Shown: positions 9,484 to 47,744, counted from the first letter of the stretch. The stretch is DNA of 64,000 nt from Actinomycetota bacterium (GCA_016870485.1 VGBM01000008.1:23999-87998); one strand, 5' to 3'. The notes: generated by a model from the letters alone, not told the origin. Made by a program: numbers and translations.

Positions 9484-10088
9484 CAGGCGGGCTCCCAGGC
9501 GAGGAAACGCGAGAGGAGCTGCCGGCCGGCCTCGGCCGAGCGCTCCGGGTGGAACTGCGCCCCGGCCACGGAGCCGCGCACGACCATCGAGGCGATGGTC
9601 GCGTCGTCGATGCTCGTGATCGCGAGGGCGGACGGGATGTTGGCGGTGACCGCGTAGGAGTGCGCGAAGTACGCCACGGCGGGCAGGTCCCGGGTCAGCG
9701 GGTGGTCCTGCAGGGGCTCGACATCGTTCCAGCCGAGGTGGGGCAGGCGTGCGGCGCCGCGGATCCGGTGCACGCTGCCGTGCAGGAGCCCGAGGCCCGC
9801 GCAGTCGTCCTCCTCGGAGCGGTCGAAGAGGACCTGCAGCCCGACGCAGACGCCGAGCAGCGGCACGTGGCGTCGCGCGGCGTCGCGGAGGGCGTCGGCG
9901 AGCCCACGGGACTCGAGCGCGGCCATGGCGGCCCCGGCCGCGCCCTGGCCGGCCACCATCAGGCGCTCGGCGCCCGCCACGGCGTCCGGATCGGCCGAGA
10001 CCGCCACCCGCGCGCCGCAGCGCTCGAGCGCGGCGGTCAGCGAGCGCACGTTGCCGCCCCCGTAGTCGACGATCAGGACCGAGGCCAC
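9483..10088 (-). CDS. hisH: Imidazole glycerol phosphate synthase, glutamine amidotransferase subunit
   Basis: VLIVDYGGGNVRSL...LLGVCVGLQVLF...GAQFHPERS (Cys-His-Glu triad context). Confidence 0.95.
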   Translation of the reverse strand: MASVLIVDYGGGNVRSLTAALERCGARVAVSADPDAVAGAERLMVAGQGAAGAAMAALESRGLADALRDAARRHVPLLGVCVGLQVLFDRSEEDDCAGLGLLHGSVHRIRGAARLPHLGWNDVEPLQDHPLTRDLPAVAYFAHSYAVTANIPSALAITSIDDATIASMVVRGSVAGAQFHPERSAEAGRQLLSRFLAWEPA

Positions 10089-11794
10089 TACAGGGAGCCC
10101 TTGGTCGAGGCGATCGCGCCGGCCCGGCGCGGATCGATCGACCAGGCCGCGCGCAGCGCGCGGGCGAGCGCCTTGAAGGCCGCCTCGGCGACGTGGTGGT
10201 CGTCCTCGCCGGACGCCTCCACGTGGATGGTGGCGCGGGCATTGACCGCGATGCAGTCGATCAGGTGCGCGACGAGGCTGGTCGGCAGCTCGCCGATCCG
10301 GTCGGCGGTGAAGGCGATCCGCACGGTGCTGGAGCCACGGCCCGAGAAGTCGACGACGGCCCGGCCGAGCGCCTCGTCGAGCGGTGCGGAGGCGTCGCCG
10401 AAGCGTTGGATGCCGACGCGGTCGCCGAGCGCCGCGTCGATGGCCTGGCCGAGCACGATGCCGCAGTCCTCGACCGTGTGGTGCGGGTCGATGTGCGTGT
10501 CACCCGTGCAGGCGAGGTCGAGGTCCATCAGGGAGTGGTGCCCGAGCGCGGTCAGCATGTGGTCGAGGAAGCCGATGCCCGTGGCCACGAGCGCCTGCCC
10601 GCCGCCGTCGAGGGTGGCCTGCAGCCGGATCGCCGTCTCCTTCGTGGTGCGCTCGATCAGCGCGCCGCGGCCGAACGTCGCCGCGCCGACGGCCGGATCG
10701 TGCGGCGCGGGGGCGGGGCGGCCCAGCAGCTCGGCGAGGCCGGCCAGCAGCCGGTCGTTGTCGGCCGGGACCGACACGCAGGCGCGGATGCAGTCGGCGA
10801 GCAGGGGCTCGTGCCCGAACGTGCGCACCACGAGCCCGCGCGCCGCGAGCTGCGCGAAGGCGTCATCGCCCTGCCAGGGCGTGCGGGCGAGCACGAAGTT
10901 GGCGGCTTCGCCCACGACCTCGAGGCCGAGCTCGCGCACGCCGGCGGCGAGCCGCTCGCGCTCCGCCCGGTAGGCCGCCGTGTCGCGCCGCATGACGTCG
11001 ACGTGGCGCAGGGCCAGCTCGGCGCCGAGCGCGGAGCCGGTGGAGAGGGAGCCGGGCGGGCGCAGCGCGTCGATCGAGCCCGCGATCCCGGGATTGGCGA
11101 TCGCGTAGCCGGCGCGCAGGGCGCCGAGGCCCCAGCCCTTCGAGAAGGTGCGGACGATTACGAGGTTGGGGCAGTCGTCGAGGAGTCCGCTGTGGTCCTG
11201 CGCACCCCCGAACTCGAGGTAGGCCTGGTCGACGGCCACGACGCCGGGGCAGCGCGCGGCGATGGCCCGGATCCGCTCGGCGGGGACCTCCTCCCCCGTC
11301 GGGTTGTTCGGCGAGCAGAGCCAGACGAGGCGCGCCCCCTCGGCGCGGCGCTCGACCTCGTCGAGGTCGAGGCGCAGCCCGCCGCCGGGCAGCGGGTCGA
11401 CGAGGTCGACCTCGGCGCCGGCCATGCGGGCGCCCGTGGCGTGCAGCTGGTAGGTGGGGCGCGGAACGACGGCGCGATCGCCGCGCCCGAGCGCGATCCA
11501 GGCGGTCAGGAGGATGGCCTCGTCGCCGCCCGCGGTCGGCACGACGTGGTCGGGCGTCAGCCCGACGTAAGCCGCGATCGCGCGCTTGAGGTCGGCGTAG
11601 TCGGCCTCGGGGTAGGAGGAGACCGACTGCGCGGCGATCGTGCGCGCGATGCCGGGCCACCACGAGGGGTTCAGGGGCAGCGTGTTGAGGTCGAAGCGGG
11701 CGACGTCGCCCGCGGGCACGCCCTCCTGCCAGCGGTACGGCGACGGCTTCGCCAGCTCCGGGCGGATCCAGGGGATGTCGAGGGGCTCGCTCAC
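10088..11794 (-). CDS. hisC-hisB: Fusion protein: histidinol-phosphate aminotransferase (N) + imidazoleglycerol-phosphate dehydratase (C)
   Basis: One uninterrupted 568-aa frame. Residues 1 to ~365 are HisC-like (SYPEADYADLKRAIAAY, CSPNNPTGEEV, VRTFSKGWGLGALRAGY). Residues ~375-568 are IGPD (ERTTKETAIRLQATLDGGG, GIGFLDHMLTALGHHS, DPHHTVEDCGIVLGQA, HHVAEAAFKALARAL). I saw no in-frame start or stop in the PAPAPHDPAVGAATFGRG linker. Confidence 0.9.
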   Translation of the reverse strand: MSEPLDIPWIRPELAKPSPYRWQEGVPAGDVARFDLNTLPLNPSWWPGIARTIAAQSVSSYPEADYADLKRAIAAYVGLTPDHVVPTAGGDEAILLTAWIALGRGDRAVVPRPTYQLHATGARMAGAEVDLVDPLPGGGLRLDLDEVERRAEGARLVWLCSPNNPTGEEVPAERIRAIAARCPGVVAVDQAYLEFGGAQDHSGLLDDCPNLVIVRTFSKGWGLGALRAGYAIANPGIAGSIDALRPPGSLSTGSALGAELALRHVDVMRRDTAAYRAERERLAAGVRELGLEVVGEAANFVLARTPWQGDDAFAQLAARGLVVRTFGHEPLLADCIRACVSVPADNDRLLAGLAELLGRPAPAPHDPAVGAATFGRGALIERTTKETAIRLQATLDGGGQALVATGIGFLDHMLTALGHHSLMDLDLACTGDTHIDPHHTVEDCGIVLGQAIDAALGDRVGIQRFGDASAPLDEALGRAVVDFSGRGSSTVRIAFTADRIGELPTSLVAHLIDCIAVNARATIHVEASGEDDHHVAEAAFKALARALRAAWSIDPRRAGAIASTKGSL

Positions 11795-12645
11795 GGGATC
11801 AGGTGCTCGATGGGGACGACGAGCAGTCCGCTCGCGCCCGCCTCCTTGAGAGGATGCAACAGCCGGGGCAGATCCGCGACATCGACGACCGCGTGCACCG
11901 CGTGCATGTCGGCCCGGGCCAGCGGCAGCACCGTCGGGGCGTCGAGCCCGGGCAGGAGCGCCAGGATGCGGTCCAGCGCCACGTCCGGGGCGTTCAGCAT
12001 CAGGTAGCGCTTGGGCCGGGCGGCCAGCACCGACTCGACGGCGGTCCGCAGCACGGCGACGCGGTCGTCGTCGGCCACGCGGTCGGCGGCGATCAGGACC
12101 GCCTCGGAGCGCAGCACCGTGTCGATGATGCGCAGGCCGTTCTGGCGCAGCGTCTCGCCGGTGGAGACGAGGTCGCAGATCGCGTCGGCGGCGCCGATCG
12201 TGGGGGCCAGCTCGATCGACCCCGACAGGGTCGTCACGTCGGCCTCGACGCCGTGCTCCGCCAGGTGGGACCGCAGGACGTGGGGGTGGGAGGTGGCGAT
12301 CCGGCGGCCCGCCAGGTCGCCCACGGTCGCGATCCCCGCCTCGACGGGAGCGGCGAGGGCGAGCGTGCAGGCCCCGAAGCCGAGCGCCACGAGCACGCCG
12401 AGGCCGGCAGCGCCGTGCTCGGCGAGCTGGTTGCCTCCGACGACGCCGACGTCCGCCGCGCCGTCGCGCAGCAGGGTGGGGATGTCGTCCGTGCGCGCGT
12501 AGAGGAGCTCAACCCCCTGACCCGCGACCGGCACGAGCAGCCGCCGGTCGTCGCCGGGGATGGGGATCCCGGCGTCGGCGAGCAGGCTGCGCGTCGGGTC
12601 GGCGAGGCGCCCCTTGGAGGGCACCGCGATGCGCAGGGCGCTCAT
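11791..12645 (-). CDS. hisG: ATP phosphoribosyltransferase, long form
   Basis: ATG at 12645 in ORF 11791..12705. MSALRIAVPSKGRL...DLVSTGETLRQNGL, plus a C-terminal regulatory domain (KRYLMLNAP...). ATGA overlap with the upstream regulator gene and GTGA overlap with the hisC-hisB start. Confidence 0.94.
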   Translation of the reverse strand: MSALRIAVPSKGRLADPTRSLLADAGIPIPGDDRRLLVPVAGQGVELLYARTDDIPTLLRDGAADVGVVGGNQLAEHGAAGLGVLVALGFGACTLALAAPVEAGIATVGDLAGRRIATSHPHVLRSHLAEHGVEADVTTLSGSIELAPTIGAADAICDLVSTGETLRQNGLRIIDTVLRSEAVLIAADRVADDDRVAVLRTAVESVLAARPKRYLMLNAPDVALDRILALLPGLDAPTVLPLARADMHAVHAVVDVADLPRLLHPLKEAGASGLLVVPIEHLIP

Positions 12646-12947
12646 CGGGGCCGGCCCAGCCGGTCCAACACGGCCCGATAGCCGCCTTCGCCGTGGCGCA
12701 GCCACTGGGCGACGCGGGTGACGGTGGCGGTCGAGGCGCCGAGGCGCTTGGCGACCTCGGCGTAGGGCAGGCCGGCGTCGACGAGGCGCGCCGCCTCCAG
12801 CCGCTGGGCCAGCGCCCCGAGCTCGGTGAAGGAGCAGACGTCGCGCAGGAACGCGAGCATCGTCTCGCGGTCGTCGATCTCGATAAGCGCGTCGGCGAGC
12901 TGCTCGACGGCCGGGGTCCTCCAGGTGGTCTCCGCAGATTGTTTCAT
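12642..12947 (-). CDS. TrpR-like YerC/YecD family DNA-binding protein (candidate his regulator)
   Basis: 101 aa: ...LADALIEIDDRETMLAFLRDVCSFTELGALAQRLEAARLVDAGLPYAEVAKRLGASTATVTRVAQWLRHGEGGY. This is the typical YerC/YecD (Trp repressor-like) layout. It is the first gene of the his operon. Confidence 0.8.
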   Translation of the reverse strand: MKQSAETTWRTPAVEQLADALIEIDDRETMLAFLRDVCSFTELGALAQRLEAARLVDAGLPYAEVAKRLGASTATVTRVAQWLRHGEGGYRAVLDRLGRPR

Positions 12948-12948
12948 C

Positions 12949-12966
12949 GTGTTAGCATGCTAACAC
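12949..12966. promoter_or_regulatory. 18-bp perfect palindrome GTGTTAGCATGCTAACAC, candidate shared operator with overlapping divergent -10 elements
   Basis: It fills the 20-bp gap between the regulator start codon (12945-12947, minus) and the hisA GTG (12968). The dyad centre is equidistant (10.5 bp) from both start codons. TAGCAT (TANNNT-like -10) reads outward on both strands. Confidence 0.65.
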
Positions 12967-12967
12967 A

Positions 12968-13726
12968 GTGAACGGCCCCCGTGACGACTTCCTGCTCTAC
13001 CCGGCGATCGACCTGGTCGCCGGCCGGGCGGTGCGGCTTCTGCACGGGCAGTTCGACCAGATCCTGACGAACGAGCTGGACGACGCTCTCGAGCGGGCGC
13101 GCCGCGTCTGGGAGGCCGGCTCGCGCGCCCTGCATGTGATCGACCTCGATGCGGCGCGCAGTGGGGAGCCCGCCGAGCCGAACCGCGGCCTCGTCCGCGC
13201 GATCGCCGCCGCGAAGCCCCCGACGGGGCTCCTGCAGGTCGGCGGGGGCCTGCGCAGCGCCGCGGCCGTGGACCGCCTGATCGCCGATGGCGTCGACCGC
13301 GTCCTGATCGGCACCATGGCCTTCCGGGAGCCCGAGCTCCTCGACGCCCTGATCGCGCACCACGGCGCGGCGATCGCCGTCGCCATCGACAGCCGCGGGG
13401 GCAGCGTGCGCATCGCCGGCTGGCAGGAGGACGCGGGCGTCCCCGTGGCGGAGGCGGCGCGCGAGCTCGTCGACCGCGGCGTACGGCACCTCCTCGTCAC
13501 CGGGATCGACCGCGACGGCTCCCTCGCCGGTCCCGACCTCGCGCTCCTGGAGGGCGTCCTGGCGGCCGTGGCGGGGGGCCGGGCCGGGGTGATCGCCGCC
13601 GGGGGCGTGACCACGGCGGGGGACGTGCGGAACGCCCGCGCCCTCGGCTGTGCCGGCGCCGTCGTCGGCCGGGCGCTCCTGGACGATCCGGACCTGCTCG
13701 CCGAGCTGCTCGCCGCGGCCGCCTAA
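12968..13726 (+). CDS. hisA: ProFAR isomerase HisA (a PriA-type bifunctional HisA/TrpF cannot be excluded)
   Basis: LLYPAIDLVAGRAVRLLHGQFDQ...LQVGGGLRS...LLVTGIDRDGSLAGPD...IAAGGVTTAGDV. Confidence 0.92.
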   Translation: MNGPRDDFLLYPAIDLVAGRAVRLLHGQFDQILTNELDDALERARRVWEAGSRALHVIDLDAARSGEPAEPNRGLVRAIAAAKPPTGLLQVGGGLRSAAAVDRLIADGVDRVLIGTMAFREPELLDALIAHHGAAIAVAIDSRGGSVRIAGWQEDAGVPVAEAARELVDRGVRHLLVTGIDRDGSLAGPDLALLEGVLAAVAGGRAGVIAAGGVTTAGDVRNARALGCAGAVVGRALLDDPDLLAELLAAAA

Positions 13727-14044
13727 CAGCGCCGATCCGACCACCGCCTCGAAGGGTGATTGAGGGGTACGCATGAACCTCAGGCTCAGATTTCTGCGGT
13801 TTCACTTGAGCGTTTTCGGCCGCCTGGGCGTGATCGAGACCGTTCCGTTACGCACAGCTTCTCGCGACGAAACACGATAAATAAGCCAAAGATGGGGAAT
13901 ACCCTCAGCCTTCGGTTGAGGCATTTACGAAAACGCAACCGGCTCGAGCTTGCGGGTAGCATGGGATTGCCCGTACAGTCTCGATCTCTTTAGAGGGTTC
14001 TGCCCTCAGTCAGAGACCGAGACTCCTAACCGTCGATCTGAGAA
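13727..14044 (+). promoter_or_regulatory. AT-richer structured 5' leader upstream of the NlpC/P60 gene (candidate riboswitch or cis-regulatory RNA)
   Basis: Visibly lower GC than the flanks (GATAAATAAGCCAAAGAT, CATTTACGAAAAC). Hairpins at 13903-13921 (CCUCAGCC/GGUUGAGG) and 13952-13974 (GCGGG/CCCGU). A three-tier hairpin at 13978-14023 (GUCUCG/CGAGAC, UCUCU/AGAGA, GAGGG/CCCUC) ends 21 nt before the ATG. Confidence 0.5.
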
Positions 14045-15115
14045 ATGACTTTCCAGCGTACCACCCGCACCGTCGCCCTCGTCCTGGTCGTCCTCGTCGC
14101 GTTCTCGGGGGTCGCCGACGCCAAGCGCAAGAAAAAGCGCAAGCCCGCCCGCGCCGTCGCCACGCTCCCCGCCGAGGGGCGCAACCTCCACCAGAGCGCG
14201 ATCTCGGTCGTGCTCGCCGCCGGCGTGATGCCGGGCGCGACCGCCGAGACGATGCGCCCGGATGAGCCGCTCGACGGGCCGGCGCTGCAGGCGTTCGTGC
14301 AGGCCGCCTTCCCCAAGACCGGCAAGCGCGTGCGCCAGATCGCGGCGGGGCAGACCGTGACCATGGGCGACGTCAACGCGATCTTCGTCGAGGCCGCCGG
14401 GATGGGCCCGACCGCGGTGCGCGCGGAGGAGCTGATCGCGAACGCCGGCTACGTGGTGCGCCCGGGCCTCGGCACCGAGATCGTCGCCCGCCTGATGCGG
14501 CTGCGGACGAACCTCGATCAGGCCGAGGACGCCAAGGAGCACGCCTGGTACGAGCAGGCCTCCCGCGGCGACGCGATCTGGTCGACGGCGGTCGTCCTGA
14601 AGTGGGGTGGCTGGGAGAAGCAGTCCGCGATCGACACGGTCGAGCTGCTCGCGCAGGTCCCGCAGACGGCAGGCCCTCAGCACGACGCGATCCAGCGGGC
14701 CTTCGACTTCATCGGGATGCCCTACATCTGGGGCGGCACCTCCGAGCAGCCGCAGATCCTGTTCGGGGCGAACACCGCGGGCGGGTTCGACTGCTCCGGC
14801 TTCACATGGCGCATCCTTGCGCTCGACCCGACGGCGCCGAAGCAGGCCGCGAAGAACTTCGGCGGCCGCACCACGTTCGAGATGGCCCGCACGGCCAAGC
14901 CCGAGCAGCGACTGCCGCGCGAGGCGATCCAGCCCGCCGACATCCTCCTGTTCGGCCCGGGCGGCCTGACCGGGGCCTCCGACGGCATCAACCACACCGG
15001 GATGGCGATCTCGCCGCAGCTGTTCATCCACTCCTCGGGGCAGGGCGTCGCCCTGGCCCGCTGGGACACGGGCTACTACCTCGACCGGCTCGCCTTCGGC
15101 AAGCGGATCCTCTAG
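14045..15115 (+). CDS. Secreted NlpC/P60 family peptidoglycan hydrolase
   Basis: Signal peptide MTFQRTTRTVALVLVVLVAFSGVADA. C-terminal NlpC/P60 domain PYIWGGTSE...GFDCSGFTWRI...INHTGMAISPQLFIHS (Cys and His catalytic residues). Confidence 0.9.
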   Translation: MTFQRTTRTVALVLVVLVAFSGVADAKRKKKRKPARAVATLPAEGRNLHQSAISVVLAAGVMPGATAETMRPDEPLDGPALQAFVQAAFPKTGKRVRQIAAGQTVTMGDVNAIFVEAAGMGPTAVRAEELIANAGYVVRPGLGTEIVARLMRLRTNLDQAEDAKEHAWYEQASRGDAIWSTAVVLKWGGWEKQSAIDTVELLAQVPQTAGPQHDAIQRAFDFIGMPYIWGGTSEQPQILFGANTAGGFDCSGFTWRILALDPTAPKQAAKNFGGRTTFEMARTAKPEQRLPREAIQPADILLFGPGGLTGASDGINHTGMAISPQLFIHSSGQGVALARWDTGYYLDRLAFGKRIL

Positions 15116-32084: not shown

Positions 32085-32155
32085 AGCGGGTAGGGAGAAT
32101 CGAACTCCCGTATTCAGCTTGGAAGGCTGCTGCTCTACCATTGAGCTATACCCGC
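32085..32155 (-). tRNA. tRNA-Gly (anticodon UCC)
   Basis: Reverse complement GCGGGTATAGCTCAATGGTAGAGCAGCAGCCTTCCAAGCTGAATACGGGAGTTCGATTCTCCCTACCCGCT folds as a cloverleaf. The anticodon loop is CUUCCAA. Confidence 0.93.
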
Positions 32156-32252
32156 GGGAGCCCGCCGGAGGGGTCCAGTGCGCAGTGTACGCGGGGCCGC
32201 CGGGCGCCCGTGGCGCCAGCGTTGATGCGGGGAATTCGGTGATTTACATCTT

Positions 32253-32283
32253 TTAGTCCCGAACCACTTGCATTTCGGACTAA
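32253..32283. promoter_or_regulatory. Imperfect inverted repeat TTAGTCCCGAA-N9-TTTCGGACTAA upstream of the ECF sigma gene
   Basis: 10 of 11 arm positions pair, with one bulged C. It lies in an AT-richer 172-bp gap 45-75 nt upstream of the sigma ATG and about 100 nt upstream of tRNA-Gly on the other strand. Confidence 0.4.
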
Positions 32284-32327
32284 GTCGTGTATAACTACCT
32301 CCAACACCGGAGCTGAAAGGCACTGCG

Positions 32328-32894
32328 ATGTCCCTCATCCGACCTACCGATACCGACGAGTCCCTTGTCGCCCGCACCGCACAGGGCGACACGGACGCCT
32401 ACGCGGAGCTCTACAGGCGCTACCTTCCCGTCGTCCGTGCGTTCGCTCGGCGCCGCACCGGCGACGTCGATCGCGCCGACGAGCTGACGCAGGAGATCTT
32501 TCTCGACGCGTGGCGTAGCGCCGGCCGCTACGACCCGAAGGTCGCCCCGGTCGCCGCGTGGCTGCGTACCATCACCGCGCGCCGCGCCGTCGACTGGACG
32601 CGCCGGGCCGCCGTGCGCCCGCCGCTGGCCCAGCACGAGGGCCGCGAGGTCGCCGAGGACAGCAAGGACGCCGAACTGGTCGAGCGCATCGACTTCGTCG
32701 ACGCCATCAAGGATCTGCCTGAGGCGCAGCGCGAGACGCTCGCCCTCGCCTTCTACGGGGACCTCACGTACCCGGAGATCGCCGAGCGCACGGGCACTCC
32801 GCTCGGCACGGTCAAGAGCCGCGCGCTGCTGGGCATGCGCCGCCTCGCGACGAACGCCGCCGCGACGGACGCCCGCCCGCACCTCACGGGCTAA
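32328..32894 (+). CDS. ECF (sigma-24 type) RNA polymerase sigma factor
   Basis: Region 2 (YAELYRRYLPVVRAFARRRTGDVDRADELTQEIFLDAW) and region 4 (LPEAQRETLALAFYGDLTYPEIAERTGTPLGTVKSRALLGMRRL). Confidence 0.9.
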   Translation: MSLIRPTDTDESLVARTAQGDTDAYAELYRRYLPVVRAFARRRTGDVDRADELTQEIFLDAWRSAGRYDPKVAPVAAWLRTITARRAVDWTRRAAVRPPLAQHEGREVAEDSKDAELVERIDFVDAIKDLPEAQRETLALAFYGDLTYPEIAERTGTPLGTVKSRALLGMRRLATNAAATDARPHLTG

Positions 32895-47659: not shown

Positions 47660-47744
47660 GATCAATCCTCCTCGCGCTGATCGCGCGTCCGATGCGCTGT
47701 ACGATAGGGCCACCCGGGGCGGCCCGTCAACGTTGAGGCGCCCC

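Follow-up and report, generated by a model that had tools for sequence, protein, structure and literature searches.

Probable transcription-control region of an NlpC/P60 peptidase gene, conserved downstream of hisA in one Gaiellales clade

Elements of the ydaO type occur upstream of cell-wall hydrolase genes in Actinobacteria. At the 5′ terminus of bacterial mRNAs, stabilizing stem-loops are exemplified by the ompA and ermC leaders, and the HspR operator HAIR has the form CTTGAGT-N7-ACTCAAG. The genes under MtrA control include ripA and rpf genes in M. tuberculosis; in C. glutamicum they include nlpC, mepA and mepB. In S. coelicolor, the MtrA consensus reads G/T-T-G/A-A-C-C-N5-G-T-G/T-A-C (PMC5650626), while M. 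tuberculosis MtrA recognizes a c-G-T/A-n-A-C/T-c direct repeat with a 4-nt gap (PMC6265350). The GlnR box is written gTnAc-n6-GaAAC (PMC10235972).

Our analysis concerns a 318-nt gap (13727-14044) between hisA and the gene of a secreted NlpC/P60 hydrolase. The gap lies in what we call the window, i.e. the whole 64,000-nucleotide stretch of DNA that was analyzed. We consider it probable that this gap is a conserved transcription-control region of the NlpC/P60 gene, found in one Gaiellales clade (class Thermoleophilia), and that it is not a riboswitch.

The gap and its conservation among relatives

The genes on either side of the gap are the following.
12968-13726, plus strand: hisA, the upstream gene (Pfam His_biosynth, E 1.5e-53)
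14045-15115, plus strand: NlpC/P60 (C40) peptidase gene (PF00877, E 2.7e-10)

An earlier sequence-only reading had placed the gap at 13727-14044 and had described it as the longest non-coding and an AT-richer stretch of the window. These coordinates are exact, with hisA ending at 13726 and the NlpC/P60 ATG at 14045, and the description was confirmed. By codon-phase GC, the gap is the longest stretch without a coding signature, followed by the tRNA region near 32.1-32.4 kb, and its GC content is 55.7% vs 73.8% across the window. The second-lowest-GC 150-nt stretch of the window also falls inside it. The lowest (32221-32370, 51% GC) lies upstream of a tRNA gene at 32085-32155 (minus strand), and a divergent plus-strand gene begins beside it, near 32331. 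The NlpC/P60 product has the N-terminus MTFQRTTRTVALVLVVLVAFSGVADA-KRKKK with a signal-like hydrophobic segment that ends in ADA-K, and this N-terminus reads as a putative signal peptide.

The gap is strongly conserved in 33 orthologous Gaiellales/Thermoleophilia sequences from six clades, where it is always located between hisA and NlpC/P60. A protein-guided scan restricted to one genome per species yielded about 20 loci in Gaiellales/Thermoleophilia metagenome-assembled genomes. The NlpC/P60 orthologues of these loci are 65-91% identical to the window protein, and their upstream regions align over the whole gap, invariant blocks included. A strict DNA-pattern scan of metagenome contigs gave 19 matches (13 true copies and 6 chance ones); all 13 true copies lie between hisA and NlpC/P60, and one is identical to the window. 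Protein searches combined with contig look-up added further clades, which are more distant (55-59% identity) and share this gene order. Overall, the NlpC/P60 orthologues share 55-94% identity with the window protein, and hisA is the upstream neighbor at every orthologous locus. The gene order common to all clades has hisBC, hisG and a trpR-like gene on one strand, and hisA, the gap and NlpC/P60 on the other, followed by SEC-C. Exactly one gap copy per locus was found by nhmmer, with no second copy in the window and none beside homologues at ≤35% identity.

Within clades, the identity of the gap's core is 0.92-0.94, whereas the adjacent gene reaches 0.62-0.73 at its synonymous third positions; between clades, the values are 0.65 vs 0.50. 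Since core identity exceeds that of synonymous third positions, selection acts on the nucleotides themselves. The gap is a real cis-regulatory region under purifying selection. The sequence-only reading had proposed a cis-regulatory region with a hairpin near the start codon and had held that a lack of conservation among relatives would speak against it; conservation across the 33 sequences is instead strong, and this part of the proposal stands.

Several features of individual loci should also be mentioned. A 1.8-kb metagenome contig (L086, Ga0194128_10102713) is identical to the window over the gap and the start of NlpC/P60, and its sequence suggests that it probably comes from the same population. 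At L018 (2809-2985, = L111; 65% protein identity) the gap is short, at about 177 nt, and its GC content is high (67%). What it keeps, as judged by eye, is limited to TACGAACGC, GTAGACTGGG, TTAGTC and a candidate hairpin. The candidate GGCGC/GCGCC stem, also picked out by eye, is absent from the predicted fold, and the region folds no better than shuffles. The NlpC/P60 gene of this locus has a GTG start and a GGAG Shine-Dalgarno. The short, GC-rich gap of L018 indicates that hisA and NlpC/P60 can be adjacent without the long AT-rich form between them. Upstream, a TrpR-like gene (PF01371) at 12642-12947 on the minus strand is 20 nt from the start of hisA, which lies on the opposite strand. In the window, hisA is set apart from the other his genes, and the 12642-12967 region leaves almost no space for a hisA promoter. 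Further upstream, 10088-11794 (minus strand) encodes an apparent fusion of about 565 aa between a HisC-like aminotransferase and HisB (imidazoleglycerol-phosphate dehydratase), and the corresponding Pfam domains, Aminotran_1_2 and IGPD, are found in orthologous loci (also L100 1-282).

Promoter motif and candidate regulator boxes

The elements of the central and right-hand parts of the gap are listed here.
13836-13851, no strand assigned: distal GTnAC-N6-GTnAC repeat (GAGACCGTTCCGTTAC), a candidate MtrA-type response-regulator box
13903-13921, no strand assigned: H3, inverted repeat CCTCA-N9-TGAGG upstream of the promoter
13924-13939, no strand assigned: proximal box TTTAC-GAAAAC-GCAAC (about −62 to −47), composed of two 5-nt half-sites that repeat with an 11-bp period
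13950-13955, plus strand: putative −35 element TTGCGG, its TTG invariant in 33/33
13974-13979, plus strand: putative −10 element TACAGT (TA[GC]AGT), invariant in 33/33
13986-14044, plus strand: predicted 5′ UTR of the NlpC/P60 mRNA, about 59 nt, placed by the promoter position
14040-14044, plus strand: weak Shine-Dalgarno-like GAGAA, read from the sequence and the sole such motif before the ATG

It is most likely that the gap contains a sigma-A-type promoter formed by the hexamers at 13950-13955 and 13974-13979. All 33 sequences carry TTG[CA]NN, a spacer of 17-18 nt (18 nt in the window) and TA[GC]AGT followed by CTC, and the −10 element is 65-66 nt from the ATG in every one of them. In clade E the spacer (TTACCGGAAAGCTGACC) is unrelated to that found elsewhere (GTAGAGTGGGGGTACGCA), with length, hexamers and spacing kept. 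With this change, the GTAGAGTGGGG block disappears and two candidate helices lose their partners, uncompensated. Conserved hexamers at a conserved spacing, separated by a spacer of free sequence, are the signature of a promoter. The pattern is also rare, as TTGNNN-N17/18-TANNNT has only two matches over both strands of the 64-kb window, each in a gap just upstream of a gene. The other match, at 47701-47730 (minus strand; TTGACG...TATCGT with an N18 spacer), sits in an intergenic gap, about 85 nt long, that separates a stop codon from GAGGAGG and an ATG at about 47658. Given its place directly upstream of a Shine-Dalgarno and an ATG, it is likely a promoter as well. A simple E. coli-type promoter scan did not call the 13950-13979 site because TTGCGG matches only three of the six positions of TTGACA. 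Two other assignments were considered and set aside: the first TAGAGT-GGGG block as the main −10 is absent from clade E without compensation, and an ECF sigma promoter with CGCAAC as its −35 would lack, by eye, a fitting −10 at 16-17 nt.

From the position of the −10 element we infer a transcript start at about 13984-13987, 5-7 nt downstream. The sequence-only reading had taken the whole 318 nt as a leader and had named a start downstream of the hairpins as evidence against itself; the predicted start falls within the 5′ arm of its hairpin at 13978-14023, which we count as that outcome. With a promoter-like motif inside the supposed leader, the leader is predicted to be about 59 nt rather than 318 nt long, and this stretch has no insertions or deletions across clades. 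The motif directly before the ATG is GGAG in clades C to F, and there is none in clade B (L004, L006, L007, L009, L013, L014, L017 and L090), where the 15 nt before the conserved ATGAC are without a Shine-Dalgarno (TATCACAACGATG). In clade B, GGAG is found 26 nt upstream, 5′ of a small AGAC/GUCU hairpin that would be able to bring it nearer the ATG.

Upstream of the promoter motif, the proximal box is the most conserved block of the gap, with [GT]TTAC and GCAA[CT] present in 33/33 sequences, although its second half-site (GCAAC) is one position off the consensus. Judged by sequence, its layout matches that of actinobacterial OmpR/PhoB-family boxes such as those of GlnR and MtrA. The distal box agrees with the S. 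coelicolor MtrA consensus KTRACC-N5-GTKAC, a consensus from Streptomyces, at 10 of 11 positions. Of 26 sequences, 21 have a match of at least 9/11 at the corresponding place in the alignment. Matches of this type number only three in the 64-kb window (P about 0.03 against shuffles). The distal box is absent in clades D and E, which have a different inverted repeat there, and its sequence fits a short inverted repeat just as well. Since MtrA controls the same gene class elsewhere, the gene class fits MtrA, which is the obvious candidate for a regulator that we infer to act on these boxes.

Between the H2 hairpin (described below) and the distal box, 11-12 nt (alignment columns 107-117, about 13818-13828 in the window) are missing in clades B and E and in L016 and present in clades A, C and D. 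This length corresponds to one helical turn, so flanking DNA sites would stay on the same face of the helix. In H3, CTC...GAG and the 9-nt spacing are conserved. Its z-score is −1.55 in the window, and its stability is inconsistent among clades. The variable stem positions of H3 show A-T, G-C, G.T and A.C in close relatives; all four combinations are thus present, as expected of independent change.

Hairpins and rival explanations

Four hairpin structures are considered on the plus strand.
13747-13765, plus strand: H1, CCTCGA-N7-TTGAGG, just after the hisA stop codon
13784-13816, plus strand: H2, GCTCA...TGAGC, then G and TTTT; its H2a helix is 87.8% paired
13978-14023, plus strand: three-tier hairpin, −23.6 kcal/mol, z = −4.59, with 0/200 shuffles as stable
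13985-14016, plus strand: 5′-proximal stem-loop of the predicted leader (inner tier 13993-13998/14002-14007, middle tier 13985-13989/14012-14016)

Every clade has H1, although the register of the stem differs (ACCCTC/GAGGGT, CTCAAG/CTTGAG, CTCTC/GAGAG). Its z-score is below −0.9 in 14/17 representatives (mean about −2.6), 84.6% of cells are paired, and four pairs have changed on both sides. H2 has invariant TTGAG and TTT, and its 5′ arm can pair instead with the 3′ arm of H1 (GAGGGT/ACCCTC), again with 87.8% pairing. Taken together, H1 and H2 have z < −1 in 15 of the 17 representatives (mean about −2.7). H1 is probably the 3′-end structure of the hisA mRNA, and H2 is a possible weak terminator. 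The U-tract after H2 consists of only four T, and there is none in L104, which falls short of an intrinsic terminator. A terminator scan of the window, L100 and L005 found no plus-strand terminator after hisA; the few terminator-like matches in the window have no bearing on the promoter model. As there is no canonical terminator after hisA, read-through into the gap is possible.

The three-tier hairpin folds as the sequence-only reading had described it, ending 21 nt before an ATG with a weak ribosome-binding site. Clade D, L016 and the L010 subclade have lost its outer tier (13978-13983/14018-14023), the 5′ arm of which overlaps the −10 element and the bases that follow. Results of a duplex test ranged from p = 0.008 to 0.79 among clades, and the outer tier was rejected as a conserved helix because it is significant in some clades only. 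At the position of the leader stem-loop, each clade has a hairpin (z −1.0 to −5.3 in the 17 representatives), and the stem differs in clade E (GAGCCC/GGGUUC).

Folding of the whole gap is no better than that of shuffled sequences (z −1.33 on the plus strand, −1.64 on the minus strand). The only parts that fold better than shuffles in nearly every clade are the hairpins after hisA and the hairpin after the predicted start; in the 17 representatives, the central part, where H3 and the most conserved block are located, gave no consistent thermodynamic signal. RNAalifold returned a consensus of −11.1 kcal/mol over 389 columns for the whole gap (covariation term −1.67), and −2.46 kcal/mol (covariation term −0.03) for the region from −35 to the ATG in 21 sequences from all clades. 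Covariation in relatives, a check proposed by the sequence-only reading, was weak. In a hand-built 11-helix model, 79% of cells are paired and 19 pairs have changed on both sides, while shuffles average 16.9 (127/500). For the covariation score, the values are 0.140 vs 0.126 (10/500), a difference within the range that relatedness alone can give. The weak covariation reflects stems that are kept by invariance.

CTCA and TGAG are enriched 8-10-fold in the gap, where they form five alternating segments of the CCCTCA/TGAGGG type, a pattern that a promoter alone would not account for. Within the window, hairpins of CTCA/TGAG are confined to the gap, and nhmmer found one copy per locus, which led us to reject a genome-wide REP-like repeat. 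A long-range GGGG/CCCC helix was also discarded, since it is absent in clade E and uncompensated. The same applies to an HspR HAIR operator: the resemblance amounts to 10/14 positions by eye, in one clade only, and the gene is not a heat-shock gene.

With regard to other roles for the gap, it had been proposed that it is a divergent member of the ydaO-yuaA (c-di-AMP) riboswitch family. Genomic context is the sole support for this, the gap lying 5′ of a gene of the cell-wall/osmoprotection/transport kind, here NlpC/P60. Scanning the whole window against Rfam 15 at gathering thresholds gave a tRNA as the sole match, and the eight orthologous loci gave none at gathering score. Permissive scans (E ≤ 10) returned three chance-level matches for 13600-14200 and two for L007 2650-3050, none of them ydaO. 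Both RF00379 and all other Rfam models therefore fail in these scans, the covariance model does not bear out the proposed resemblance of some segments to conserved ydaO pieces, and the ydaO fold would not fit into the predicted leader of about 59 nt. Based on these results we reject the ydaO assignment and give it almost no weight. Scarcely more credible is that the gap encodes a small protein or leader peptide, for example from the ATG at 13893 to 13993 (MGNTLSLRLRHLRKRNRLELAGSMGLPVQSRSL). One frame does give similar peptides in several clades (..TL..LR.LRKRN..ELA..), with a superficial likeness to a helix-turn-helix N-terminus; however, a TAG interrupts this frame in clade B, the start codons lack conservation, and a conserved block is displaced by 1 nt from one clade to another, so that the frame is broken. 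Moreover, the core is invariant at all three codon positions whereas the neighboring genes vary at third positions, and no Pfam match was obtained at E ≤ 10. The small ORF was rejected on these grounds. An independent sRNA gene in the left part of the gap, or an sRNA derived from the hisA 3′ UTR, is improbable to a lesser degree. In its favor, no other structures are as consistently stable as H1 and H2, which start at the hisA stop codon, but no signature of a separate promoter or terminator was found, and the region has no Rfam match and no other copy elsewhere.

A novel long leader or attenuator RNA deserves more attention. Here, most of the gap would be transcribed, through read-through from hisA or from an upstream start, and the alternating segments CCCUCA, UGAGGG, CCCUCAA, UUGAGAC ... 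GUCUCGA, CUGAGG, CCUCAG and GAGAC would pair with either neighbor. The fold would respond to a protein, a ligand or the ribosome by switching, and NlpC/P60 expression would be set accordingly. This is consistent with the enrichment of CTCA and TGAG, with the ability of each segment to pair in either direction, to the segment before or after it, with about 85-88% conservation, and with the stability of the three-tier hairpin, the z-score of which is −2.3 to −3.4 in several clades besides the window. Conservation of the bases after −10 (CTCGAT) goes beyond what a promoter needs. In several clades these bases can pair with a segment further downstream (z to −4.6), and in clades E and F the invariant GUCUCGA has different 3′ partners of its own, of 7 bp; such pairing would need a transcript start further upstream. 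The lack of a canonical terminator after hisA and the fixed, indel-free distance from −10 to the ATG also point in this direction, and the missing Shine-Dalgarno of clade B suggests that structure may matter for translation. Against a long leader stand the non-significant covariation and weak consensus energies reported above, and the fact that at variable positions of the stems, otherwise kept by invariance, A.C mismatches are as frequent as compensations. In addition, the helices of the GGGG block and of CGCAA/TTGCG are lost uncompensated in clade E, the outer tier of the three-tier hairpin is lost in the lineages named earlier, and the middle of the gap and the gap as a whole lack a consistent thermodynamic signal. 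Weighing the enrichment, the five pairing segments, the CTCGAT conservation and the lack of a terminator, we retain the long leader as an unlikely explanation, although one well ahead of those in the preceding paragraph. A slightly smaller likelihood is given to a more specific version, in which the region of about 300 nt, from the hisA stop to the NlpC/P60 start, would be a new lineage-restricted cis-regulatory RNA of freshwater Gaiellales with mutually exclusive hairpins. Its fold would couple hisA read-through, or a protein or ligand, to the hydrolase, and the promoter-like motif would be secondary. If a long leader were real, it would represent a new class of RNA attenuator that serves a single gene in a single clade.

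Current evidence does not support a structured RNA of 318 nt, and of the sequence-only reading it is the conserved cis-regulatory region with its hairpin that survives, while the ydaO riboswitch and the 318-nt leader do not. Instead, we favor a transcription-control region, most likely with a layout of four parts. One or two hairpins at 13747-13816 most likely belong to the 3′ end of the hisA mRNA, where they would act as a U-poor terminator or a stabilizer. These would be followed by about 130 bp of control DNA that holds the 13836-13851 repeat, the 13903-13921 inverted repeat and the invariant TTTAC-n6-GCAAC box at 13924-13939, and to which an OmpR/PhoB-family regulator, with MtrA as the candidate, would bind. 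The predicted sigma-A-type promoter (TTGCGG at 13950-55, an 18-nt spacer, TACAGT at 13974-79) would come next. Finally, the first 30 nt of the 5′ UTR of about 59 nt would form a stem-loop that probably guards the 5′ end of the mRNA or tunes translation from the weak ribosome-binding site.

If the transcription-control reading is correct, the gap is an ordinary promoter region that is unusually well conserved. For the uncultured freshwater Gaiellales, it would provide a first promoter/operator model, which combines TTGnnn-N17/18-TAnAGT with a GTnAC-type box, and it would extend MtrA-like control of cell-wall hydrolases to the class Thermoleophilia. An AT-rich, hairpin-rich gap before a hydrolase gene is also seen to be insufficient for a ydaO call.

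Comparison with known systems

Compared with ydaO-yuaA (RF00379), the locus has the same kind of downstream gene (NlpC/P60) in the same phylum; however, the gap lacks a sequence or structure match at the thresholds tried, and its predicted leader is far shorter. HspR HAIR is approached by the leader hairpin of clade B, CCTGAGG-N7-CCTCAGG, which has the same spacing and the partial identity noted by eye. Across clades only GAG...CTC is conserved, however, the stem of clade E is unrelated, and the gene is of a different class from heat-shock genes. The locus also has a likeness to 5′-terminal stabilizing stem-loops. Here, too, a stable hairpin lies a few nt from the 5′ end, and its presence is conserved even where, in clade E, the stem sequence is different; the 5′ end at this locus differs in being a predicted one.

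Actinobacterial sigma-A (HrdB/SigA) promoters share with the motif described here the invariant positions, namely TTG, the spacer length and T1, A2 and T6 of the −10, together with a free spacer sequence and a suitable distance upstream of the gene. In contrast to those promoters, the −35 element (TTGCGG) is weak, CTCGAT after the −10 is unusually conserved, most clades have a second TAGAGT-GGGG block within the spacer, and the start is a predicted one.

With respect to MtrA and GlnR, the second half-site of the proximal box is GCAAC and not GTnAC or GaAAC, and the distal box is missing in two clades; MtrA is named here as a candidate. Nevertheless, the NlpC/P60 gene is of the same class as the MtrA-controlled hydrolase genes ripA and rpf of Mycobacterium and nlpC, mepA and mepB of Corynebacterium, and half-sites of the GTnAC type recur every 11 bp, as in MtrA/OmpR/PhoB boxes. 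Activators of the OmpR/PhoB family bind just upstream of the −35 element, which is where the proximal box is located.
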